Shown: positions 4,869 through 22,997 of the stretch, piece after piece
Numbering within the stretch: the first letter of the stretch is position 1
How the letters are laid out: every line of letters begins with the position of its first letter
Assembly: GCA_964640225.1 (NCBI GenBank)
Contig: CAZXFI010000002.1
Coordinates: 1 to 57,198 of the forward strand
Length of the DNA: 57,198 nucleotides
Direction: 5' to 3'
Source of the DNA: an uncultured archaeon
GTDB taxonomy: Archaea; Aenigmatarchaeota; Aenigmatarchaeia; PWEA01; JAGHBM01
The notes under the pieces: model-generated
What the model was told of the DNA's origin: nothing
The model's database searches: none
Seen by the model: the letters and a program-made list of their open reading frames with translations, nothing else
Program-made: the position numbers and the translations under genes

Positions 4869-5366
4869 ATGTTTTACACGGACAGGAGGTTCTTGGCCGG
4901 AATAATCGCGGTGCTGTCGGCGCTTTCAGTCCTGTATTTCTTTCTTGCACCGGACCTGCCTTCGGAAATTGTGGAAACCCTTTCCGGAAGGGACGCCTCT
5001 CTTGGTGAGGAGGAAGAGGAAACCGGACCGGAGGAGTGCCCCACGTGCGGAAGCGGGGAAACCGCGGAAGGAGACTGGGAGGAAAAAGAAGACTCCGGAG
5101 AAGGAGGAGGCGGCGGGGGCGGAGGCTCGGGAGGCTCTGAACTAGGTCCGCAGGGATGCGAGGCCCACACCGGGAACAAGAGGGACTGGTGCTACAGGGA
5201 CCTGGCCCTTGAACAGGGAGACCACACGATATGCCTGAACATAGTGGACGACTACAACAGGGACAGCTGCTACAGGTACCTGGCCATGGACCTGGACGAC
5301 CCCTCCCTCTGCGACTACATAGAAGACGAGTTCAGAAGGGAATGGTGCCACGAGCTCCTGGACTAG
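4869..5366 (+). CDS. Membrane-anchored surface protein with acidic/Gly linker and three Cys-helix repeats
   Basis: N-terminal TM, Glu/Gly-rich linker, repeats C-x6-RDWCY, C-x7-RDSCY, C-x7-REWCH. Confidence 0.7.
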   Translation: MFYTDRRFLAGIIAVLSALSVLYFFLAPDLPSEIVETLSGRDASLGEEEEETGPEECPTCGSGETAEGDWEEKEDSGEGGGGGGGGSGGSELGPQGCEAHTGNKRDWCYRDLALEQGDHTICLNIVDDYNRDSCYRYLAMDLDDPSLCDYIEDEFRREWCHELLD

Positions 5367-7496
5367 AGCTTTTTCTGTTCTTCCTTCTTCTTACCAAACT
5401 GCTCCATTACTTTCTGCGCAATCTTCGGGCCGAGAAGGTCTCCGAGCCTTTCCTTCGGGGCCTTTCTAAGCGAGGAGACCGTGCGGTAGCCGGAATTGTA
5501 GAGTATCCTTGCCCTGGCTCTTCCTATTTCCCTTAGCTTGACGAGGCTCACCAGCTCCTCTTTTATCCCGTATTTCATCCTAGTCCTGATTTTTCTTATT
5601 TTCTTTGACTCCTCCCTGAGCCTGAGCAGGTTGGAAAGCTCCTGGCAGGAGTAAAGGAGCCAGTCTGCTATATCAACCTTTGACCTGAGGCCTCCGGGCG
5701 TGACGCCGTAGTTGTCCATGAGGAAATCCTCCCCTCTTTCGTTCATCCACTCCTCCAGGGCGAGCGCTGTCTTGAAATAACAGAGAAAATTGTCATACTC
5801 CAGGTCCCAGTTGCCCGGTATCTCTATACCAATATCTTCCCTTAAGGCGAGCTTCTCTTCCAGTTTCTCCAACTCGCTTTTTCTTATTCTGAAAGGGCCC
5901 ATTTCGCTGGTGGAGCTTATCAGGAGAAGGTAGTCAAAGCTCTCCAACCCGTGCCTCATTCCGCATATCAGCCTGTGCGCGGTTTCCGGGTCCAGGTAAA
6001 GCTCCGCCACCCTCTTGCCCATTCTTGTCACCTCAAACCCCCGGTCCCTTTTTATGAAATTTTGCTCCTCCAGCTTTTCCACTATGCCGCAAAGCATGTT
6101 TTTTATCCTGGATATGTCCCCGTACTGGTGGGCAAACAGGGTATCGGAGAAAAAATCCATCAGCTGTTCCTCGTTCCTTACCGTGGTCGCTATGAGAGAA
6201 AGCACGTGTGTTCTTAAAACCGGCTCCACCGAAAGCTTTGAGTATATGTTCTCGGCCTCGCCCATGAGGAACCTTTCCGCAAGCTCCTCGGCATCCCTTT
6301 CGTTCCTTCCTATAAGTATGGATTCGCCCTCCCTGTCGTACCTGGGCCTCCCTGCCCTTCCGGACATCTGTTGGTACTCAAGAACAGGGATGTAGACAGA
6401 GCCGTAGCCGGACTGGTATCTCTTGGCGTCCCTTATTATAACTCTCCACGCCGGAAGGTTCACGCCGGCCGCAAGGGTGGGCGTGGCTGACACGATTTTG
6501 ATTAGGTTCTGCCTGAAGTAGTCCTCTATGATTGTGCGCTGGCCGTTCTGCAGGCCCGCGTGGTGGAAGGCGGTGCCGTTTTTCACGCACTCGGCAAGCC
6601 TTCTGCACTGCCTGGTTGGGTGGGAGGGCACGGACAGTATTTTCTCCGAAATGTCTTGCAACAAAACCTTTTCCTCTTCCGTTAGGAATTTTTTGACAAA
6701 CTTCCCCGTTTCCTCCGCGGTCTTTTCCGCGTTCCTCCTGCTGGACAGGAAAATGAGAGCTTGTTTGTCCCTGGACACGGTCTCTTCCGTGAGCAGAATT
6801 TCCCCGGGGTGCCTGCCCCCGATTCCCACGTCCTTCTTCCCGAGAAACCTGATCTTCTCCCCGTCGTAAACCCCCTCATGAAGCTTTACGGGCCTGTAAT
6901 CGGACTTCACCAGTCCGGCACCCAGCCACTCCGCTATGTCAATAGCGTTGCTTATGGTGGCGGAGAGCCCCAGAATCTGGGCCCTGGTGTCCCTCTTTAG
7001 TTTCGTGAGAACCACTTCCAGCGTGGGCCCCCTGCTCCCGTCATTGAGCAGGTGTATCTCGTCTGCCACTATGAGGCCTATTTCCCTTACCCATACGGGA
7101 TTGTGCCTCAAAAGGGAATCCAGCTTTTCCACGGTGACTATAATCAGGTCGGAATTGGCCAGCCAGTTGTCCGAAGAGTCGTAGTCGCCCACCGAGAGCC
7201 CGACTTTTACGCCCAGACTGCGGTACTTTTTGAAATCCTTGTATTTCTCGTAGGCCAGCGCGCGGAGCGGGACGATGTAAACAGCCTTTCCTTTCCTTTC
7301 CATTATTGTTTTTAGGAAGGCAAGCTCGGCTATTAAGGTTTTTCCAGAGGCGGTTGGCGACGCGACCACGAGATTCTTGTAATCAAGAAGCCCCTTTTCC
7401 ACCGACATTTTCTGAGGAGGGTTTAGTTTCGTGATTCCCTCCAGAACAAGCATCTCCTTCGCCTTTTCCGGCATTTTCAGTTCCTTGGTCAGCATG
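5363..7496 (-). CDS. hel308: Hel308/Hjm SF2 DNA helicase
   Basis: Q motif PPQ, SPTASGKT, DEIH, SAT, HHAGL, TPTLAAGVNLP, QMSGRAGRP, C-terminal HhH. Start taken at ATG 7496, with TTTTATAG about 25 nt upstream. Confidence 0.95.
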
Positions 7497-8804
7497 TAGA
7501 TTATTGGAGGATGAGCTATAAAAGGGTTCGTCCGTTTCAAAGGCGGCTATGTTGAAGCTTTCGTGCTTGTGCCTGCACCCCTGCTCCGGGGTGTAAGTGA
7601 ACTCCGCTCCGGAAAACAGGAGCAGGTATGGGGCGTTGCCCAAATATTTTTCTATCCTTTTCTTCTCCTTGAACACGTTTCCTCCAAGGGCCTCCTGCCT
7701 CGCGGCGCACTCCGCAATAAGGCCCAGCGCGGGCTTTTTGGAAAACCCTTTCAGCGCCTCGTCCACAGCCCCTATCATTGACTCGCCGGAGGCGGTGAGC
7801 ATCGTCATTTCCGGGTTGTCTATCCGCCTTCCCATTATTATATAGTCTCCGTAAAACATGGTTGTTATCTCCGGGTAAAGTGCCCCGTCCTTCTCAAAGG
7901 AGGGCAGGACAAAGAAGGCCCTTTTGGTGATTTGCTCGTTTATGACTCCGGGCCTCCAGCCCAGGATTCTCAGGTACTCCTGCCTGGCGGGCTTCCCGTT
8001 TATCTCCTTTATAATCAGTCCGGTTCTGTCCTTTTTGGTCACGGTGAATTTCTTGTCCGTTTTCCTGAATCCGAAGCCTGTGTCCACGTAAACGTCAAAG
8101 TCGGATTTGAGGCCCACGGCAACTATGGAGTTGTTCAGCACTTCCTTTCCGTAAAACTGCCTGTGGCAGGAAAAGTGGATATCGGCCCAGGTGGAGGCGC
8201 CAAGGCCCTTGAAATCCGGCAGAACCTCCATCATGCCTTCCCTGACTTCCTCTTCCCTGCCCATTCCCCAGCCGAATATTCCCATTATGGGAAGCATGAG
8301 CGAGACAAATCTTCCTATTATCTTGCTGTCGCTTGTTTTCCTGTAGCCGAGAACAGGCATTTTCTTCAGGATTGCCCCGGAAGTTATGTCAAAAACAAAC
8401 CCGTTTTTGCAGGGGGATGCCGCGAGCTGCCTCCTGATTTCCTCCCCTGTTTTCCTCCCGGCCTTTTTGGGATTGCCTTTCGTGCCTTTACCGAATGCCG
8501 AGGCCACGTCCATCCGGTCGCACGCCACCGCAAGCATCACTGCGCCCCAGCTGAAACATCCCCGGGGAATCATGAAGCCGGACGTGGTGCCGCCTATAAG
8601 GTGTGTTCCCTCCGGCAGGACCTCCCAGACTCCGTCCAGAAGTTTTTGGTAACCGCCGTTCCTGTAGTACTCGTAGGTGCAGGATAGAATAACGAACCTG
8701 GGTTTGCCCCCGAGCCTGTCCAGCGCGTCCCGCGCAACCTCCCTTCCCGCTTCCTTCGGGTCCCAGTTTCTTGACAACCCTATACCTACTTTTAAGCTAG
8801 TCAT
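7383..8804 (-). CDS. FIST-domain (FIST_N + FIST_C) sensory protein, copy 1
   Basis: LIGGTTSG, KEINGKPA, ECAARQ and FSGAE patterns typical of FIST proteins. C-terminal extension overlaps hel308. Confidence 0.8.
   Translation of the reverse strand: MTSLKVGIGLSRNWDPKEAGREVARDALDRLGGKPRFVILSCTYEYYRNGGYQKLLDGVWEVLPEGTHLIGGTTSGFMIPRGCFSWGAVMLAVACDRMDVASAFGKGTKGNPKKAGRKTGEEIRRQLAASPCKNGFVFDITSGAILKKMPVLGYRKTSDSKIIGRFVSLMLPIMGIFGWGMGREEEVREGMMEVLPDFKGLGASTWADIHFSCHRQFYGKEVLNNSIVAVGLKSDFDVYVDTGFGFRKTDKKFTVTKKDRTGLIIKEINGKPARQEYLRILGWRPGVINEQITKRAFFVLPSFEKDGALYPEITTMFYGDYIIMGRRIDNPEMTMLTASGESMIGAVDEALKGFSKKPALGLIAECAARQEALGGNVFKEKKRIEKYLGNAPYLLLFSGAEFTYTPEQGCRHKHESFNIAAFETDEPFYSSSSNNLHADQGTENAGKGEGDACSGGNHETKPSSENVGGKGAS
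7932..8080. repeat. 149-bp direct repeat shared by FIST copies 1 and 3
   Basis: Identical by eye to 10520-10668 (offset 2588). Confidence 0.9.
8397..8765. repeat. 369-bp direct repeat shared by FIST copies 1 and 3
   Basis: Identical by eye to 10985-11353 (offset 2588). Confidence 0.9.
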
Positions 8805-8808
8805 TGAA

Positions 8809-10101
8809 TCAGCTTTTTTTATGTCCCATTATCGCGGTGTTGTAGGACATGTTTGCGTAAGTGAACCCTCTTTCCGGGGAATAGGTGCCTTCCCCGGTGG
8901 AGAAAAACAAAAGGAAGGGCTTGTCCCTCATATATTTCCTTATTGTTTTTCTTATCTCCGCCACGTTGTTGCCCAGAGTCTGTAGTATGGTTATGCATAC
9001 AGAGAACAGTCCGAACTCCGGTTTCATGCCCTTGAAGGAGGCCATGTTAGTTTCCATGGAGTCTATCAGGCTCTTCCCGCTCATGTTCATTATCCAGGCA
9101 TCTCCCTTATCCACCTTGCACGGCGTGACAATATAATCCTTGAGTACAAGGGCCATAACCGCGGGAACCTCCCGGTCGTGCCTTTTCATGGAGAGGGGAT
9201 AATAGAAAATCTTTAAAAGAAGCGTTTCATCATTCAGGAAACCCCGGGGCCAGTTCAGCAGCCTGCTTAATTCGGGAACGGCCGGCCTGCCGTTTATCTC
9301 CTGGATTATGTGGCCGTCCTTGCTTAACTTCGTTATCTTTAGCTTTACGTTGCTTTTCTTCATTCCGTGGTTTGTAAACACGTCAAAGTCAAGGTCCGTG
9401 GCTATGCCCAGTCCCACGACGCTGTTTTCCAGAACCCTGTTGCCGAAAAACTGGCAGTTGTACATTCCCTTGAAATTGTCCGTGGAGGAGCCCAGAATCA
9501 TGCCGTAATCGGGAAGTTTTTTTGCGATTTCCTCAAAAATTTCGTCCTCTCTTCCGAGGCCTTTCTGCATTAGAATCTGGGAAACGGAAAAAAACTTGGT
9601 TATGGACTTGCTGAGGAACTCGGAGTCTATGACCTTCCTGTAGCCGTATCCCGGTATCTTCAGCACAACAGAACCGGAAACAAAATCAAAGACAAACCTG
9701 TTTCTATACAAGGAATTCTCAAAATCCTCCTCAATCATCCCGATGAATTTTTTCGCGGCTTTTTCCGGGTTTCTCTTGGTCTGCATCCCGTAGCCCATGG
9801 CCACATCCATGTTCGGGTAGGAGACGGCAAGGGCCGTTGCCCCGCGGGTGAAGCATCCGTCCTGGCTTATGAAACCCGGAACAGTCCCCCCTATCAGCGG
9901 CGTTCCCTTCGGCAAAACTTCCCAGACTCCCTCCAGGAACTTCTCAAAGCCTCCGTTATCTTTGTAGTGCACCGTGGAAAACAGAAGAAAGAAATCTGGC
10001 TTAGCACCCAGCCTGTCAAGTGCGTCCTTGGTCACTTCCCTGCCGGCCTCTTTTGCGTCCCACTTCCTAGAGAGCCCCACTGCCGCCTTTGGTTGAACCG
10101 T
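8809..10101 (-). CDS. FIST-domain sensory protein, copy 2
   Basis: LIGGTVPG, QEINGRPA and STGEG motifs. Start is either ACG at 10101 (behind a GGTGA RBS) or GTG at 10080. Confidence 0.8.
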   Translation of the reverse strand, partial: TVQPKAAVGLSRKWDAKEAGREVTKDALDRLGAKPDFFLLFSTVHYKDNGGFEKFLEGVWEVLPKGTPLIGGTVPGFISQDGCFTRGATALAVSYPNMDVAMGYGMQTKRNPEKAAKKFIGMIEEDFENSLYRNRFVFDFVSGSVVLKIPGYGYRKVIDSEFLSKSITKFFSVSQILMQKGLGREDEIFEEIAKKLPDYGMILGSSTDNFKGMYNCQFFGNRVLENSVVGLGIATDLDFDVFTNHGMKKSNVKLKITKLSKDGHIIQEINGRPAVPELSRLLNWPRGFLNDETLLLKIFYYPLSMKRHDREVPAVMALVLKDYIVTPCKVDKGDAWIMNMSGKSLIDSMETNMASFKGMKPEFGLFSVCITILQTLGNNVAEIRKTIRKYMRDKPFLLFFSTGEGTYSPERGFTYANMSYNTAIMGHKKS

Positions 10102-11404
10102 CTAACTCACCTGTTTTGTCGTTTTTGAACACCGCCACGTTGAAGCTCTCGTACTTGTTCCTGCATCCCTGCTCCGGCGTGTAGGTACATTCCCCTCCGC
10201 TGAAAAGAAGGAAGTACGGCGCGTCGCCCAGATAATTTTCTATCCTATCCTTTTCCTTGAACATGCTCGTGCCCAGGGCCTCCTGCCTCGCGGCGCACTC
10301 AGGAATTATGGCAAGCAGGGGCCGGCCGGAAAACCCTTCAAATGCCTCGTCCACCGCCCCTAGCAAAGATTTACCGGAAGCCTTTATTATGGTCATTTCA
10401 GGGTTGTCTATGGTCTTGGCCACTATTATGTAGTCGCCGTAAAACATTCCAAGTACTTCAGGATAGAGGGCTCCGTCCTTCTCAAAGGAGGGCAGGACGA
10501 ATAAGGTTCTTTTCAGGTGTTGCTCGTTTATGACTCCGGGCCTCCAGCCCAGGATTCTCAGGTACTCCTGCCTGGCGGGCTTCCCGTTTATCTCCTTTAT
10601 AATCAGTCCGGTTCTGTCCTTTTTGGTCACGGTGAATTTCTTGTCCGTTTTCCTGAATCCGAAGCCTGCATTGACGTAAGATTCAAGCTCCGACTTGAAG
10701 CCCAGGGCGACTATGGAGTTTTTGTAAACTTCCTTTCCCAGGAACTGCCTGTGGTAGGCGAACCTGCTGTCATCCCAGGTGGAGATACCCACGCCCTTGA
10801 AATCCGAAAGCGCTTTGGTAAGCTCCTCCCTCACGGGGTCGTTGCGTCCCATACCCCAGCCGAAAAGCCCCATGAGAGGCATCGCGAAGGAGACAGCCTT
10901 GGCTATGAATTTGCTTTCTATCACCTTTCTTTTTCCCACCACCGGTATTTTCGGAAGTAGCGCGGAAGAAGTAAAGTCAATAAAAAACCCGTTTTTGCAG
11001 GGGGATGCCGCGAGCTGCCTCCTGATTTCCTCCCCTGTTTTCCTCCCGGCCTTTTTGGGATTGCCTTTCGTGCCTTTACCGAATGCCGAGGCCACGTCCA
11101 TCCGGTCGCACGCCACCGCAAGCATCACTGCGCCCCAGCTGAAACATCCCCGGGGAATCATGAAGCCGGACGTGGTGCCGCCTATAAGGTGTGTTCCCTC
11201 CGGCAGGACCTCCCAGACTCCGTCCAGAAGTTTTTGGTAACCGCCGTTCCTGTAGTACTCGTAGGTGCAGGATAGAATAACGAACCTGGGTTTGCCCCCG
11301 AGCCTGTCCAGCGCGTCCCGCGCAACCTCCCTTCCCGCTTCCTTCGGGTCCCATTTACGGGACATACCCACAACTGCCTTGAATCCTGATAAATTGCTCA
11401 TCAT
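10067..11404 (-). CDS. FIST-domain sensory protein, copy 3
   Basis: Close paralogue of copy 1 with the same motifs. ATGA overlap with the upstream gene. Confidence 0.82.
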   Translation of the reverse strand: MMSNLSGFKAVVGMSRKWDPKEAGREVARDALDRLGGKPRFVILSCTYEYYRNGGYQKLLDGVWEVLPEGTHLIGGTTSGFMIPRGCFSWGAVMLAVACDRMDVASAFGKGTKGNPKKAGRKTGEEIRRQLAASPCKNGFFIDFTSSALLPKIPVVGKRKVIESKFIAKAVSFAMPLMGLFGWGMGRNDPVREELTKALSDFKGVGISTWDDSRFAYHRQFLGKEVYKNSIVALGFKSELESYVNAGFGFRKTDKKFTVTKKDRTGLIIKEINGKPARQEYLRILGWRPGVINEQHLKRTLFVLPSFEKDGALYPEVLGMFYGDYIIVAKTIDNPEMTIIKASGKSLLGAVDEAFEGFSGRPLLAIIPECAARQEALGTSMFKEKDRIENYLGDAPYFLLFSGGECTYTPEQGCRNKYESFNVAVFKNDKTGELDGSTKGGSGAL

Positions 11405-11790
11405 AAGGTATTGCCCTTTTCCAGAAGCTCTATTATACTTTCTCTTGTGTTTTCAAGCTCCACTTCAAGCAGTCCGCGATTTGCCAGGGCCGGTATGAGG
11501 GCAACAAGGGCGGTGTCGGTCTCAGGTAGAATGAAGAAAATAACGTCGTATTTCCCAAGCTCAAAGTAGATCTTGTTGAGCCCGTATGCCGAGTACTCCT
11601 TGATTATGCTAAAGAACTGGTTCATTGTCTTCTCCAGAGAGCCCCATACTCCCTTGAGCTCGGGATCCCTGGATTCCTCTATCAACACGACTCCGTCAAG
11701 CTCCCTCCTGGCCACCATGCAGGCGTAAACGTCTTCAAGCTTGAGCAAATTATTCCTTAATATAGCTTCTATCTCCGTGTTTAAAGACAT
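11401..11790 (-). CDS. Roadblock/LC7 (MglB/profilin-like) fold protein
   Basis: About 129 aa with a helix, beta-hairpin, helix, three strands, helix pattern. Co-oriented between the KaiC-like gene and the FIST genes. Confidence 0.55.
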   Translation of the reverse strand: MSLNTEIEAILRNNLLKLEDVYACMVARRELDGVVLIEESRDPELKGVWGSLEKTMNQFFSIIKEYSAYGLNKIYFELGKYDVIFFILPETDTALVALIPALANRGLLEVELENTRESIIELLEKGNTL

Positions 11791-11794
11791 GCTT

Positions 11795-12475
11795 TTAACC
11801 CGTTACTTCTATGCCCTTGGGACCGAATTTCATTTCCAAAGCCTTCAGCGTGTGGTAAGTTCCGCGCATTTTTCTTATCTTAACCTTTCTGGTGTCCAAG
11901 GCCTCGTGTATGGTCAGTATTATGACCCCATCCACAATGTACGATTCAACCTCTTCAGAAATGTCAACCTCGTCCGACCTTGACTCCGCCATTATCAGCG
12001 TGGTTAGTCCTGCCCTCTTCAGCGCATCGCAAGTGGAGCTCACCGTGAACTTTATGTTGGTTCCTATGAGGTATTCAAGGGTCTGCATGCTGTCTATCAC
12101 TATTCTCTTGGCGTTTATCTCGTCCGCTCTCTCTATTATGAAGGATATAAGGTCTCTTTTCCCTTCCTCAGCGGAGGACTTGTCGTATATTCTTACAAGG
12201 TTCTGCTCTTCCAACTTCTGCAGGTCAAAGCCGAAATTGGCCATGTCCTGCTTCAGTTGGGCAATGTCCTGCTCAAAATTTATGAGAACGCCGGGTTCTC
12301 CGTGTTCCAAAGCTCCCTTGTAAAGAAACTGGACGCCAAAAGTAGTTTTTCCCGTTCCGCAGCCGCCTGCCACAAGCACTGTCCTGGGTCCCGGAGGCAG
12401 TCCGCCTCCCATCTTCTCGTCTAATCCGGGTATACCTATTGGTCTCCTTTCTTCTGCCATACTTATTATTTCCAT
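11795..12475 (-). CDS. Single-domain KaiC/RAD55/GvpD-family RecA-like ATPase
   Basis: GIPGLDEKMGGG, Walker A GGCGTGKT, Walker B IVIDS, DGVIIL and KMRG arginine finger. Confidence 0.9.
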   Translation of the reverse strand: MEIISMAEERRPIGIPGLDEKMGGGLPPGPRTVLVAGGCGTGKTTFGVQFLYKGALEHGEPGVLINFEQDIAQLKQDMANFGFDLQKLEEQNLVRIYDKSSAEEGKRDLISFIIERADEINAKRIVIDSMQTLEYLIGTNIKFTVSSTCDALKRAGLTTLIMAESRSDEVDISEEVESYIVDGVIILTIHEALDTRKVKIRKMRGTYHTLKALEMKFGPKGIEVTG

Positions 12476-12536
12476 ATTCTTTAAATATAAACCTTTGTCT
12501 TTTGTTTTAAGTATTATGGATTTAATTTATTATTTC

Positions 12537-20267: not shown

Positions 20268-22997
20268 ATGAAGTATTCCGAGCTGACCCGGACCTACGAG
20301 AGGCTGGAGAGCACCCAGTCAAAGCTGGAAAAAGCGGACATACTCGCAGAACTTTTCAGGAAGGCCAACGACCGGGACTTGCCGAAGCTAGTTCTCCTGG
20401 CTTCGGGCCGCGTGTTCCCGTCCTATTCCAAGGAGGTTATAGGAATAGCCTCAAAGCTTATGGTAAAGGCCATAGCAAAGGCCGCTGGGTTCTCGCTGAA
20501 AGAGGTTGAGGGCAAGTTCAAGGAAACAGGGGACCTCGGGCTTACGGCGGCTTATTTCGTTGGCTCAAGGAAACAGCAGACGCTTTTCAAAAAGGACCTT
20601 GACACGGACAAGGTTTTTGAAAACCTTAGAAAACTGCCGGGCATAACCGGTTTGCGCTCGCAGGAAAAGAAGATGAACCTGATAGCGGAGCTTTTCGCCT
20701 CCGCCGGCCCGAAAGAATCCGTTTACATAACACGCACCATTCTGGAGGAGATGAGGGTGGGAGTTGCAAGGGGCATAATAAGGGATTCAATTGTCAAAGC
20801 TTTCCTTGAGCCGGAGGACAAGGAGAAAAAGAAAGAGCTTACGGAGGCGGTGGAGTACGCCTTCAACATCACGTCCGATTTCAGCAGGGTAATTGTTATA
20901 GCCAAGGAGAAAGGAGAAAAAGGCCTGAAGAGCGTCAAGGTGCATCCCGGCCGGCCCCACCACCTGATGCTCGGGGAAAAGGCCGAATCCATAAAGGAGA
21001 TAACGGACAAGTTCGGAAAGGTTGCCGTTGAGTACAAGTACGATGGCATGAGATGCGTTTCAGGTTTCACCTACATATATGTGAAGAATAAAGGCATGTT
21101 CCCGGTCAGGGATGTTAAAGTTGGTGATGAGGTTCTGACACATAAAGGAAGGTTCAGGAAAGTTATTGCTAAAAACAAGAGAAAATTGGACAAAGGAGAA
21201 AAAATATTTAGATTTTCTACATATCTTGGCAATGAATTTAAAATTACGGAAGGACACGAAATTTTAGTAAATACAAAAAGTAAAATTAAATGGGTTCCAG
21301 TAGAAAAGGTTCCCAAAGGAGCCGAAGCGGTATTTTCCATACCGCGGATTAAAAACAAAGAAAAAGTTCCAAACAAAATGGTGCTCAGTACCATAGGCAA
21401 TTACAAAAAAGAAATTAAATTAAATGAAGATTTTTTCCGTTTCATGGGCTGTTGGGTAGGCGATGGGTATTCCAACGAATATAACAATACACACAGGCTG
21501 GGAATAGTTTTCAACCAAAACAAAAGAAAAAAAATAGAGTATTACAAGAACATAATCATAAAAAAATTGGGTATATTAAAAGACAAAGTTTCTGAACATA
21601 CGCATAACGGTGGCACGAGCGTTTACTGGACAGACACGCCTTTACTTAAATGGATTTCAGCTAATTTCAGAAAAGAAGGCGGAAAAGGATGTAGAGACAA
21701 AAAACTGCCCTCTTGGTTTTGGAATATCTCTGAAAACCAATTTAAGGCCTTTTTAAAGGGATGGAAAGATGCCGATGGATATGAAGATAAAACAGGAATA
21801 GCTTCCATAATGACCAAAGAAAAGCAATTGGCTTCTCTCACCCAACTAATAGCCCTGAAATTTGGCATAATACTGGGCGTTAGAAAGGTTAGGGTAAATG
21901 ATAAAAACTATTATAAAATCATTTTTACCAAATCAAGCAAACATGCCCGCATAAAAAATAATACACTTTTTGTCAGAATCCTGAAAAAGGAGAAAATAAA
22001 ATATCCTGACCCGAGAACAATAGTTTATAATCTTCAGGTTAAAGACGATGAAAGTTATTGTACAACCATAGCTTCCTTGCATAATTGCGAAATTCACAAG
22101 AAGAACGACAAAATATGGGTTTTCACAAGAAGGCTGGACGACGTTAGCAGGCAGTTTCCGGACCTTGTGGAGCTGTGCAAAAAGGGGCTTAAGCCAGCAG
22201 AGTGCGTGGTGGAAGGCGAAGTGCTGTCCGTGGACGAAAAAGGCTACCCCAAGCCCTTCCAGAGCCTGTCGCAGAGAATACAGAGAAAATACGACATAAA
22301 GGAGATAGTAAAGAAAATACCCATACAGATAAACCTTTTTGACATAACCTACCTTAACGGGAAAATGCTTTTTGACAAGACCTTCAGCGAAAGGAGAAGG
22401 TTGCTGGAAAAATCCGTCAAATCCCGGGAAGGGAAACTGCAGCTGGCCAGGCAGATAGTCACCGATGACCCGAAAAAAGCGGGCAAATTCTACAAGGAGG
22501 CCCTCAAGGCAAGGCAGGAGGGGGTTTTTCTCAAGGTTCCCGGTTCAAAATACGTTTTCGGCAGGCACGTCAACGGCTGGTACAAGATAAAGCCCATAAT
22601 GGAGACTCTTGACCTGGTTATCGTGGCGGCCACATGGGGCGAGGGCAAGCGCTCAAAGTGGTTGAGCTCCTACGTGCTGGCCTGCAGGGACCCCGATACA
22701 GACGAGTTCCTCCCCTGCGGCATGATGGGCACGGGTCTCACGGAGGAGATGTTCCAGACCATGACGGACACTCTAGAACCCATGGTAACGGAGGAAAAAG
22801 GCAAGAACGTGAAGGTAAGGCCGAAAGTAGTCGTGGAGGTGGCCTACCAGGAGATACAGAAGTCCCCAACCTACAGGGCAGGCTACGCCCTGCGGTTCCC
22901 GAGGCTCCTTAAAATCAGGGAAGACAAGGGTCCCGAGGAGGCGGACACCCTGGAAAGGCTTGAAAAGCTTTACAAGACCCAGGGAAGAGGGGGCTGA
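20268..22997 (+). CDS. lig: ATP-dependent DNA ligase (precursor containing an intein; about 565 aa after splicing)
   Basis: Motif I EYKYDG, VVEGE, FDITY, EGVFLK, WYKIK, LRFPR. Confidence 0.96.
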   Translation: MKYSELTRTYERLESTQSKLEKADILAELFRKANDRDLPKLVLLASGRVFPSYSKEVIGIASKLMVKAIAKAAGFSLKEVEGKFKETGDLGLTAAYFVGSRKQQTLFKKDLDTDKVFENLRKLPGITGLRSQEKKMNLIAELFASAGPKESVYITRTILEEMRVGVARGIIRDSIVKAFLEPEDKEKKKELTEAVEYAFNITSDFSRVIVIAKEKGEKGLKSVKVHPGRPHHLMLGEKAESIKEITDKFGKVAVEYKYDGMRCVSGFTYIYVKNKGMFPVRDVKVGDEVLTHKGRFRKVIAKNKRKLDKGEKIFRFSTYLGNEFKITEGHEILVNTKSKIKWVPVEKVPKGAEAVFSIPRIKNKEKVPNKMVLSTIGNYKKEIKLNEDFFRFMGCWVGDGYSNEYNNTHRLGIVFNQNKRKKIEYYKNIIIKKLGILKDKVSEHTHNGGTSVYWTDTPLLKWISANFRKEGGKGCRDKKLPSWFWNISENQFKAFLKGWKDADGYEDKTGIASIMTKEKQLASLTQLIALKFGIILGVRKVRVNDKNYYKIIFTKSSKHARIKNNTLFVRILKKEKIKYPDPRTIVYNLQVKDDESYCTTIASLHNCEIHKKNDKIWVFTRRLDDVSRQFPDLVELCKKGLKPAECVVEGEVLSVDEKGYPKPFQSLSQRIQRKYDIKEIVKKIPIQINLFDITYLNGKMLFDKTFSERRRLLEKSVKSREGKLQLARQIVTDDPKKAGKFYKEALKARQEGVFLKVPGSKYVFGRHVNGWYKIKPIMETLDLVIVAATWGEGKRSKWLSSYVLACRDPDTDEFLPCGMMGTGLTEEMFQTMTDTLEPMVTEEKGKNVKVRPKVVVEVAYQEIQKSPTYRAGYALRFPRLLKIREDKGPEEADTLERLEKLYKTQGRGG
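21054..22085 (+). mobile_element. Intein (344 aa) with LAGLIDADG homing endonuclease
   Basis: Starts CVSG, contains VGDEVLTH and ITEGHEIL, blocks GCWVGDG and FLKGWKDADG, ends VYNLQV...LHN followed by Cys+1. DNA is visibly more AT-rich than the flanks. Confidence 0.93.

Follow-up and report, generated by a model that had tools for sequence, protein, structure and literature searches.

A conserved archaeal gene neighborhood linking a KaiC-like ATPase, a Roadblock-fold protein and FIST proteins as a candidate regulatory module

Operon organization

Within the stretch of DNA analyzed here (the window, 57,198 nucleotides), which comes from an uncultured archaeon of Altiarchaeota type, positions 7383 to 12475 encode on the minus strand a KaiC-like ATPase, a Roadblock-fold protein (Rbl), and three FIST proteins (Table 1). 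An ORF check recovered all five genes exactly where the original prediction had placed a set of co-oriented, tightly coupled genes; from KaiC to FIST-C, the junctions are a 4-nt gap, a 4-nt overlap, a 14-nt overlap, and a 4-nt gap. A sequence scan identified one strong archaeal TATA-box-like element upstream of KaiC and no second element of like strength inside the cluster, and we take GGTTTATATTT to be the putative operon promoter. Judged from its sequence, the cluster is a real operon: co-oriented, nearly contiguous, and with a single TATA box in front. No recognizable output domain is encoded within it, and among the RNA runs searched, none was found with the locus.

Table 1. Features of the KaiC-Roadblock-FIST locus
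Feature	Position	Strand	Description
KaiC-like ATPase gene	11795..12475	-	226 aa, single domain
Roadblock-fold protein gene (Rbl)	11401..11790	-	129 aa; divergent Roadblock/LC7/MglB
FIST-A gene	10067..11404	-	445 aa; A-type, stand-alone, FIST_N+FIST_C
FIST-B gene	8809..10080	-	423 aa; B-type, stand-alone
FIST-C gene	7383..8804	-	473 aa; second A-type; ~45-aa C-terminal tail
Archaeal TATA-box-like element GGTTTATATTT	12481..12491	-	Sequence scan; 16 nt upstream of KaiC ATG 12475; putative promoter
369-nt conversion tract in FIST-A	10985..11353	-	Identical to 8397-8765 in FIST-C
149-nt second conversion tract in FIST-A	10520..10668	-	Identical to 7932-8080 in FIST-C

The KaiC-like gene contains a second in-frame ATG at 12460, use of which would make the mRNA nearly leaderless and bring the N terminus closer to those of the homologs. 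FIST-B starts with GTG, and the homology of its N-terminal strand extends a few codons upstream of this codon. At the other end of the operon, the C-terminal tail of FIST-C, which has no counterpart in any homolog, overlaps both the start of the Hel308 gene (ATG 7495) and the TATA-like element that Hel308 has of its own, 27 nt ahead of its ATG.

The tandem FIST array is no assembly artifact. It was tiled by independent contigs from four microbial-mat metagenomes; in two metagenomes, the 369-nt tract common to FIST-A and FIST-C was seen as a collapsed repeat contig at ~2x the flanking depth, and Logan contigs ended at the borders of the 149-nt tract.

The KaiC-like ATPase

The gene identities given by the original prediction (KaiC-like, roadblock-like, and FIST) proved correct by PF06745, by the Roadblock fold of a structural model, and by PF08495, respectively. 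The KaiC-like ATPase matched PF06745 over residues 12-225 of 226 (E 1.4e-51; 175.5 bits vs a cut-off of 26.6), and its top PDB matches were the CI/CII domains of KaiC (1e-52) and PH0186 (2e-36). Walker A (G38CGTGKT), F67-E68-Q with the catalytic Glu, Walker B (R124IVIDS), and R201KMRGT were kept across 30 orthologs. Missing from this protein were an insert of ~30 aa and a ..KKLF tail, both typical of most other Altiarchaeota orthologs.

Assignment to the circadian clock KaiC (NF006799 / TIGR02655) was rejected, with scores of 141 vs 408 bits and 92 vs 546 bits and no CI+CII tandem. A timer of the KaiABC type, whether hourglass or oscillator, with the Roadblock protein in place of KaiB and the FIST proteins as environmental input, would nevertheless share several features with this locus: a KaiC-family ATPase, a small obligatory partner that is always adjacent, and a serine (Ser178) that aligns with the KaiC CII phosphosite S431 in a HMMER alignment. 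We consider such a timer extremely unlikely. The protein has one KaiC domain instead of two and the low clock-KaiC score given above; its partner has a Roadblock rather than a thioredoxin-like fold; Ser178 is replaced by Glu in ~8/30 orthologs; and the genes called in seven annotated neighborhoods, like the scanned window genes, included no KaiA or KaiB Pfam family.

The Roadblock-fold protein

Rbl had no Pfam or NCBIfam match in profile searches. PF03259 (Robl_LC7) gave none even at E<=10, and one distant member of the Rbl family reached only E 0.12, while some homologs are labeled COG "Roadblock/LC7/MglB" by JGI. Its AF2 model (pLDDT 87.7) has the topology alpha-beta-beta-alpha-beta-beta-beta-alpha, and the top 50 Foldseek PDB matches to it were all Roadblock/LC7/MglB/LAMTOR proteins (E down to 8.5e-6; TM 0.6-0.77). 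By its modeled fold, then, Rbl is a member of the Roadblock/LC7/MglB superfamily. Rbl belongs to a narrow family, with 79 clusters out of 1.84 billion representatives, whose best-conserved motif, PALANRGLLEVExEN, lies at the beta5/alpha3 junction.

Like MglA-MglB and Rag-Ragulator, the locus has a Roadblock gene directly beside an NTPase gene, and the Rbl model includes the C-terminal helix that characterizes MglB and the Roadblock proteins of Asgard archaea. Unlike those systems, the NTPase is a RecA-superfamily ATPase rather than a Ras-like GTPase, and the Roadblock protein lacks a PF03259 match. No small GTPase families were found in the annotated neighborhoods of the module.

The FIST proteins

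All three FIST proteins matched FIST_N (PF08495; cut-off 23.2 bits): FIST-A with 68.4 bits (E 1e-18), FIST-B with 69.0 bits (E 6.4e-19), and FIST-C with 73.7 bits (E 2.3e-20). Matches to FIST_C (PF10442) fell below the cut-off of 28.5 bits for FIST-A (22.2) and FIST-C (20.9), and FIST-B had none; some homologs carry a precomputed PF10442 match. In the AF2 model of FIST-A (pLDDT 85.9), the best structural match was the FIST_N+FIST_C module of FBXO22, a eukaryotic FIST-domain F-box protein (8ua6, 8s7d; E 2e-8). FBXO22 shows that FIST modules are able to serve as protein-recognition surfaces, although FIST-A has 8-10% sequence identity to it, lacks an F-box, and belongs to a different biology.

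Across 106 FIST family members, His49 was conserved in 91% and Cys370 in 96%, and Cys87 was conserved as well. The His49 site is occupied by Glu in the A-type proteins FIST-A and FIST-C, whereas FIST-B keeps the His (STVHY). The FIST_N domain also carries an insert of ~35-45 residues that a second FIST subfamily lacks and that one relative has lost by deletion. The original prediction had described an amphipathic insert in each FIST protein; the insert is real, but it is better described as a hydrophobic, subfamily-specific helix, with a hydrophobic moment of only 0.19-0.43 across FIST-A and FIST-C. It is hydrophobic in these two (Kyte-Doolittle 19-residue maximum of 1.57 in FIST-C) and only mildly so in FIST-B.

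That the FIST proteins stand alone had been regarded as unusual, yet the bacterial NosP likewise consists of a single FIST domain and regulates in trans a neighboring sensor-less, autophosphorylating kinase (PMC12570481). NosP-NosK (NahK) resembles the present module in that a stand-alone FIST_N/FIST_C protein is encoded beside an ATP-using enzyme. It differs in that a RecA-fold KaiC-like ATPase takes the place of the histidine kinase here, a Roadblock protein is interposed, the hosts are archaeal, and there is no response regulator or c-di-GMP enzyme. Neither a histidine kinase nor a response regulator was found in the operon or the annotated neighborhoods, and the NosP equivalog (NF041558) was rejected for FIST-A, FIST-B, and FIST-C (40.6, 61.9, and 40.0 bits vs a cut-off of 450). 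For an NO-binding heme cofactor like that of NosP, the conserved His49 and Cys370 of the family, with the His kept in FIST-B but not in FIST-A or FIST-C, are indirect evidence at most.

FIST copy number and gene conversion

FIST-A grouped with the A-type paralogs of two relatives (L036-FIST3 and L038-FIST2), and FIST-B with the first FIST gene of three (L007, L036, and L038). Segments of FIST-A and FIST-C flanking the two identical tracts (Table 1) had diverged to dS values from 0.56 up to saturation, a pattern that points to recent gene conversion between these two genes. In their non-converted parts, dN/dS was 0.2-0.4; both paralog types (B and A/C) are under purifying selection. The "three diversified sensors" of the original prediction are not a fixed set: only two types occur here, and close relatives that are syntenic between tmk/thyX and Hel308 have 3, 2, or 0 FIST genes. 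The three FIST genes are thus a lineage-specific expansion, made up of two paralog types and FIST-A/FIST-C conversion.

Conservation of gene order

A gene order confined to this locus would have counted against the original prediction; instead, the partnership recurs in dozens of related genomes, so that objection falls away. In a neighborhood scan of species-level genomes, counting informative loci only, KaiC immediately preceded the Roadblock gene, in the same orientation, in 26/28 loci (Altiarchaeota-type genomes), and FIST lay downstream of the Roadblock gene in 17/20. The reciprocal search from FIST found the Roadblock gene directly upstream in 63/70 informative loci. The KaiC-Roadblock pair was also present in all four of four further metagenomic loci, one of which has two such pairs in tandem. 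One contig encodes a Roadblock-FIST fusion as a single 595-aa ORF, with no second fusion among 756 homologs.

The association of KaiC, Roadblock, and FIST is far beyond chance. Mere adjacency of neighbors without a common function would fit the free gain and loss of FIST genes and the lack of KaiC at many Roadblock-FIST loci, but we find it scarcely credible: the overlaps are of the translational-coupling type, and gene adjacency is kept across loci at 35-60% protein identity with otherwise unrelated flanks.

Of the three possible pairings, KaiC-Roadblock and Roadblock-FIST are linked more tightly than FIST-KaiC. In the FIST-side search, KaiC was adjacent to 9/30 Roadblock-FIST pairs and to none of the other 21/30, and FIST-Roadblock therefore appears workable without a cis-encoded KaiC. 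Conversely, FIST was missing beside KaiC-Roadblock in 3/20 informative species-level loci, as well as in one close relative with synteny and in at least one metagenomic locus (L006). From these neighborhoods and FIST copy counts, the Roadblock protein would be the hub, with KaiC and FIST as its two partners. The idea that FIST sensors feed a roadblock-modulated KaiC accordingly stands in part: a functional link is the most economical explanation, but a direct FIST-KaiC connection is not the tightest one, as the 21 loci lacking KaiC illustrate.

A role in DNA metabolism was suggested by the downstream neighbor. KaiC-Roadblock-(FIST)n-Hel308 is contiguous and co-oriented in four syntenic loci, in one of which (L037) only 42 nt separate the Roadblock gene from Hel308, and the KaiC-like ATPase is a RecA-superfamily protein that matches RadA and DnaB weakly. 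It could thus be a RecA/RadA-family paralog acting with Hel308 (and the divergent tmk/thyX) in replication or repair, regulated by the Roadblock and FIST proteins. This is very unlikely: Hel308 synteny is limited to one clade, all other loci having different neighbors; Hel308 has its own TATA-like element; and the match to RadA is only 4e-4, against 1e-52 to KaiC.

Neighbors in relatives

In relatives, the module is often found near genes for lipid-type functions. GGR-family (geranylgeranyl-reductase) paralogs were next to FIST in 38/57 loci, a conserved uncharacterized polytopic membrane protein adjoined the module in 18/36, and a B12 radical-SAM C-methyltransferase did so in 10/26. None of the three is encoded within the 57-kb window. 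The suggested membrane location of the module is hence supported only indirectly, by its surroundings in relatives but not by those in the window itself.

These neighbors raise an alternative in which FIST and Roadblock are subunits, chaperones, or substrate carriers of isoprenoid- or lipid-modifying enzymes, and KaiC is an assembly or remodeling ATPase added in Altiarchaeota. Roadblock-FIST genes do occur beside GGR, the membrane protein, and the B12 radical-SAM enzyme even where KaiC is not adjacent, including in a 1.9-Mb Thermoplasmatales genome. Moreover, structural matches of the FIST-A model include Toblerone-fold cyclic amide hydrolases and chorismatases, so that an enzymatic role for FIST is conceivable, and the conserved His and Cys residues and the hydrophobic insert would suit this reading. 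We nevertheless regard it as unlikely, if the most serious of the alternatives. The GGR genes are mostly convergent to the module (35/38 loci) rather than cotranscribed with it, the window and close relatives carry the module without such enzymes nearby, the structural matches to enzymes are weak (TM 0.3-0.4; rmsd >11 A), and the only characterized FIST proteins (NosP and FBXO22) are binding or sensing modules.

A proposed three-component switch

Archaeal KaiC-like ATPases have been put forward as "signal-transduction hubs" (Makarova, Galperin & Koonin 2017, mBio, as cited in PMC5847659 and PMC6393860), and a second component that reads the state of the ATPase is expected (PMC4858521). The KaiC-like partners named in the literature searched were KaiB-like, DEATH-like, REC, and HalOD1 proteins. 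That literature, which did not extend to Makarova, Galperin & Koonin 2017, contained no description of a KaiC-Roadblock-FIST partnership and did not pair FIST with KaiC in any relevant way. The present operon resembles the archaeal KaiC hubs in combining a single-domain KaiC-like ATPase with a variable set of small partner and sensor proteins.

The module is probably a regulatory switch. For the more specific proposal, that the Roadblock-fold protein serves as the central adaptor in a regulatory module of three components, we put the chances at about even. The Roadblock protein would bind the KaiC-like ATPase and set its ATPase or autophosphorylation state, and would therefore fill the role of "second component," as KaiB does for cyanobacterial KaiC and MglB for the MglA GTPase. 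The FIST proteins, each standing alone, would sense ligands in an auxiliary role and dock on the Roadblock protein in the way that NosP docks on its sensor-less kinase; because A- and B-type FIST differ at a pocket-type position conserved elsewhere in the family (His49 to Glu) and in the hydrophobic insert, they probably respond to different cues. The output would be encoded outside the operon. Its likely target, given the GGR, membrane-protein, and B12 radical-SAM genes that adjoin the module in relatives, is membrane isoprenoid or lipid modification; that this is the process controlled is the weakest step of the mechanism. By analogy with known systems, FIST proteins in these archaea would thus serve as auxiliary sensors whose effect on a KaiC-like ATPase passes through a Roadblock adaptor, in signaling of the KaiC-hub type that may govern the modification of membrane isoprenoids or lipids.

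Operon anatomy and flanking genes

The five co-oriented, coupled genes that the original prediction placed at 7383-12475 were borne out by their ORFs, by their short junctions, and by the single strong TATA element that precedes them (see table). Reading downstream from the KaiC-like gene, the first two genes are separated by 4 nt, the second and third share 4 nt (ATGA), the third and fourth overlap by 14 nt, and a 4-nt gap precedes the fifth. A sequence scan placed a strong archaeal TATA element (GGTTTATATTT) 16 nt 5' of the first ATG of the KaiC-like gene and found none of comparable strength inside the five-gene cluster. Given the position of this element, a second in-frame ATG five codons into the ORF (M6; 12460-12475, minus strand), which also fits the N termini of orthologues better, may be the real, near-leaderless start.

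Features of the module in the window and in relative loci (numbered L001 onward)
Feature	Location	Strand	Basis or remarks
KaiC-like ATPase, 226 aa	11795-12475	-	ORF
Roadblock-fold protein, 129 aa	11401-11790	-	ORF
FIST-A, 445 aa	10067-11404	-	ORF
FIST-B, 423 aa	8809-10080	-	ORF
FIST-C, 473 aa	7383-8804	-	ORF
Identical tract, 369 nt	8397-8765 (FIST-C) = 10985-11353 (FIST-A)	-	direct comparison
Identical tract, 149 nt	7932-8080 (FIST-C) = 10520-10668 (FIST-A)	-	direct comparison
Apparent Roadblock-FIST fusion ORF, ~592-595 aa	L120 1749-3527	+	Roadblock at residues 7-125, FIST at 173-594
Polytopic membrane protein (example)	L001 10476-11120		
Polytopic membrane protein (example)	L011 10423-11112		
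Polytopic membrane protein (example)	L015 944-1531		
Polytopic membrane protein (example)	L005 17812-18432	-	
Thermoplasmata-type locus L122	CP070798.1, 1319301-1336572		no KaiC adjacent; L123 alike

Divergent tmk and thyX genes flank the operon upstream, and the gene for the Hel308 helicase follows it downstream. The Hel308 profile alignment starts at the ATG at 7495, and the sequence TTTATAG at 7522, 27 nt ahead of this codon, resembles a TATA element; the mechanically called ORF start, a TTG at 7540, is probably not the true helicase start. Because Hel308 has its own TATA-like element and its synteny with the module is restricted to one clade, we judge it unlikely to be a sixth member of the operon; a reading in which the module serves DNA repair is given very little weight at most.

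Elsewhere the window holds genes usual for an archaeal chromosome (SMC/ScpAB, DNA ligase, NrdD, tRNA synthetases, FtsZ), and the names attached to homologues put the source among Altiarchaeota-type archaea. Its sequence was found in four microbial-mat metagenomes, and a search for transcript evidence did not find the operon locus in RNA runs. The ATP-dependent DNA ligase ORF (20268-22997, plus strand; 909 aa) carries an Intein_splicing and LAGLIDADG_3 insertion at about residues 240-606 that resembles an intein containing a homing endonuclease; in L036 and L037, two loci syntenic with the window, the orthologous ligases are 566 aa long. A 165-aa ORF (4869-5366, plus strand) without a Pfam match has a hydrophobic stretch at its N terminus, a linker rich in Gly and acidic residues (GGGGGGGSGG), and several DxCY-like motifs that contain Cys.

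A single-domain ATPase paired with a divergent Roadblock-fold protein

The KaiC-like ATPase matches PF06745 (E value of 1.4e-51), and its closest solved structures are the KaiC CI/CII domains and Pyrococcus PH0186. The protein is single-domain and scores far under the circadian KaiC equivalog cutoffs; a reading of the module as a timer is, in our estimate, very improbable. Walker A, the catalytic Glu (FEQ), Walker B, and the RKMRGT motif are intact across 30 orthologues, while the window clade does not have the ~30-residue insert and C-terminal ..KKLF tail common to most of the others. Ser178 aligns with the KaiC CII phosphosite S431, a position occupied by Glu in roughly one-quarter of orthologues.

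The 129-aa protein had no match in Pfam or NCBIfam searches, and a profile search against the PDB returned noise only; PF27410 was present as a precomputed annotation on four homologues. With sequence searches having failed, its identity was settled by fold. A structure model built from a 41-sequence alignment (pLDDT, 87.7; pTM, 0.84) has the topology alpha-beta-beta-alpha-beta-beta-beta-alpha, and its best 50 PDB fold matches were all Roadblock, MglB, MglC, or LAMTOR proteins, led by the Asgard Roadblock structures 9jue and 7yh1. As modeled, the protein belongs to a divergent Roadblock-fold family of narrow distribution: when 1.84 billion representatives were searched exhaustively with a profile, just 79 clusters were recovered. 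A distant homologue in another locus (L039 4238-4648; E value of 1.9e-6) directly follows and overlaps a gene for a CDC48-like AAA+ ATPase and is the first of ~18 small co-oriented genes, a run that looks virus- or mobile-element-like.

FIST paralogues, gene conversion, and the FIST_N insert

FIST-A, FIST-B, and FIST-C all score well over the FIST_N threshold, and matches to FIST_C are weak, those of FIST-A and FIST-C lying under the cutoff; their scores against the NosP model are an order of magnitude under its cutoff. The best structural match of the FIST-A model (pLDDT, 85.9) is the FIST module of the eukaryotic protein FBXO22, with weaker matches to Toblerone-fold hydrolases and chorismatases. 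A neighbor-joining tree resolved two paralogue types. FIST-B groups with the FIST gene that comes first in L007, L036, and L038 (B-type), whereas FIST-A and FIST-C group with the one that comes last in L036 and L038 (A-type). Copy number is fluid, with A-type duplicated in the window, B-type duplicated in L036, and both types lost in L037. Among 106 family members, Cys370 (96%), His49 (91%), and Cys87 (82%) are conserved. Since His49 is kept in FIST-B and replaced by Glu in FIST-A and FIST-C, the two types plausibly bind different things.

Outside two identical tracts, synonymous divergence between FIST-A and FIST-C ranges from 0.56 to saturation and dN/dS is 0.2-0.4, a sign of purifying selection, and by this measure they are old, functional paralogues rather than young copies. 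The tracts, found by direct comparison (they escaped a repeat finder, which listed just a 74% family), lie inside otherwise strongly diverged genes and therefore argue for recent gene conversion. An assembly artifact is ruled out by the roughly doubled depth of the shared tract in metagenome contigs (53.8 versus 26.5, and 70.6 versus 42.1) and by an independent 1,549-nt contig spanning 7217-8765; together with independent contigs from four samples that tile the FIST array, the depth establishes the duplication as real. In one metagenome, X1, a collapsed shared-tract contig carries 14 clustered differences at window positions 8462-8495, so that either the two copies or coexisting strains are nonidentical in that population.

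Two of the FIST genes have peculiarities at their termini. The C-terminal tail of FIST-C (~45 residues; region 7383-7540, minus strand) is common to no homologue, overlaps the Hel308 gene by ~113 nt, crossing its TATA-like element and start, and was probably gained when the original stop codon was lost. For FIST-B, GTG is the sole start codon available, and homology to the conserved N-terminal strand (PKAAVGLSRKWD versus FKAVVGMSRKWD in FIST-A) runs upstream of it to an in-frame TAG (10080-10104, minus strand), which leaves the true N terminus uncertain.

The amphipathic insert ascribed to each FIST protein in the original prediction stood in part. An insert of 35 to 45 residues within FIST_N (about 150-190 in FIST-A) is present throughout the Roadblock-associated FIST subfamily, is missing from a second FIST subfamily near geranylgeranyl-reductase (GGR) family genes, and is precisely deleted in the middle FIST gene of L036. 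In the FIST-A model it forms a helix (165-180) that leads into a GxGRE loop (pLDDT, 70 to 86). The A-type insert is strongly hydrophobic (IIGRFVSLMLPIMGIFGWG; Kyte-Doolittle mean, 1.57), but its hydrophobic moment is modest (0.19-0.43) and the FIST-B insert is much less hydrophobic, for which reasons an amphipathic membrane helix is possible rather than established. Diversifying selection on the insert was unsupported, synonymous sites there being saturated and dN/dS elsewhere being 0.2-0.4. Members of the insert-less subfamily (~395-415 aa; L001 13430-20384, L011 15084-16277, L019 15354-16601) cluster with GGR-like flavoproteins and ferredoxins a few kilobases from a KaiC-Roadblock pair.

Conservation of the gene arrangement

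A scan from the Roadblock side, using one genome per species, yielded 29 loci in which ORFs were called and then searched with custom HMMs. A KaiC-like gene lay on the same strand upstream of Roadblock in 26 of 28 informative loci, and in 17 of 20 a FIST gene of the window subfamily lay downstream. Synteny with the window (tmk/thyX through Hel308) is seen in three loci, which hold three (L036), two (L038), or no (L037) FIST genes. The KaiC-Roadblock pair was kept in four further metagenomic loci. One of these four has two such pairs in tandem (L006 7316-10372), between which is encoded a protein of ~245 aa that weakly matches a winged-helix (MarR/TrmB-like) domain, possibly a DNA-binding output in that lineage.

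A search from the FIST side added 80 metagenomic loci; 70 were informative, and in 63 of them the gene immediately upstream of FIST was Roadblock. KaiC was present in only 9 of the 30 with enough upstream sequence; the other 21 had unrelated housekeeping genes upstream (gcvT/H, Cdc6, primase, endonuclease III). The Roadblock proteins of these loci make up a sister clade, within which KaiC-bearing and KaiC-less loci are intermixed, and the source names of the wider FIST family, along with two genome loci, suggest that many derive from Thermoplasmatota. Roadblock is thus the hub of the arrangement, linked to KaiC at one flank and to FIST at the opposite one, and a locus may lack either of these partners in cis. 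Examined in this way, the gene order of the predicted module recurred elsewhere and is conserved across two archaeal lineages; we consider chance association very improbable.

On a single contig, one continuous ORF is an apparent Rosetta-stone fusion of Roadblock and FIST; its neighbors are a Roadblock-FIST pair encoded as separate genes and two GGR genes. Because no second case was found among 756 homologues, we count it as weak support for the Roadblock-FIST link.

Lipid-type enzymes adjoining the module in relatives

Clustering all neighbor genes, with the FIST-side loci included, revealed three recurrent companions, none of which is encoded within the 57-kb window. One to three GGR-family flavoproteins lie directly beyond FIST in 38 of 57 loci (35 of the 38 convergent), with TIGR02032 scores of up to 164 bits against a cutoff of 158.8. 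A polytopic membrane protein of ~200-230 aa with invariant KYxDQAYD, KxDN, and DE motifs occurs in 12 Roadblock-side loci and 18 of 36 FIST-side loci and had no Pfam, NCBIfam, or PDB-profile match; in many loci its gene is inserted into the KaiC-Roadblock or the Roadblock-FIST pair. Reading KYxDQAYD as a prenyltransferase mark was unsupported and was dropped. A B12-binding radical-SAM (rSAM) C-methyltransferase of ~640 aa (TIGR03975, 329-365 bits against 281.85) is present in 10 of 26 loci. The full set of Roadblock, FIST, GGR, membrane protein, rSAM, and an Lrp/AsnC regulator occurs in a 1.9-Mb Thermoplasmatales genome (CP070798.1) with no adjacent KaiC. In this locus (L122) and in L123, both Thermoplasmata-type, Roadblock and one or two FIST genes are accompanied by GGR paralogues, the membrane protein, the ~640-aa rSAM enzyme, and a double Lrp/AsnC regulator, and the gene set looks like an isoprenoid or lipid-modification cluster.

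A metabolic-accessory role, with FIST and Roadblock as parts of the enzyme system and KaiC as an add-on, is in our estimate unlikely. That the five genes constitute a regulatory module we rate at about even chances.

Proposed mechanism and implications

Archaeal KaiC-like ATPases are expected to need a second-component partner (PMC4858521), and we propose that Roadblock would bind the KaiC-like ATPase in this capacity. The FIST proteins might act in trans as auxiliary sensors by analogy with NosP, which acts on its sensor-less kinase (PMC12570481). The lipid-type enzymes that recurrently adjoin the module in relatives suggest control of isoprenoid or membrane-lipid modification as its output, and the recurring GGR, membrane-protein, and rSAM genes likewise point to archaeal lipid chemistry as the regulated process. 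Put together, a hydrophobic or redox cue, perhaps an isoprenoid, quinone, or lipid intermediate, would be read by FIST through its subfamily-specific hydrophobic insert and passed through the Roadblock adaptor to the KaiC-like ATPase; dedicated GGR paralogues, the new polytopic membrane protein, and the B12 rSAM C-methyltransferase would then carry out remodeling of membrane isoprenoid lipids. The whole chain is speculative, and we doubt that it holds in every step.

By analogy, the module may work like the NosP-kinase, KaiC-KaiB, and MglA-MglB pairs, yet it belongs to none of those families. A literature search, whose reach did not extend to the central 2017 mBio paper on KaiC hubs, returned nothing linking FIST or Roadblock to KaiC, and one combining Altiarchaeota with FIST or KaiC returned nothing relevant. 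KaiC-like ATPases are proposed to be the main native signaling hubs of archaea, a general concept that the module fits; we know of almost none with a known input, partner, or output. To our knowledge, FIST-domain ligands are likewise mostly unknown, and archaeal lipid chemistry has few known regulators.

The module offers a defined three-part system of ATPase, adaptor, and sensor, and its relatives supply natural experiments: loci that differ only in carrying zero to three FIST genes, Roadblock-FIST pairs that do or do not have KaiC beside them, and one apparent fusion. The hub hypothesis is therefore directly testable with three small soluble proteins. Roadblock proteins are best known as regulators of small GTPases; if the proposal is true, their role would be extended to RecA-fold ATPases, in what would be the first such case, FIST domains would gain a second type of output besides histidine kinases, and archaeal lipid modification would have its first identified signaling input.
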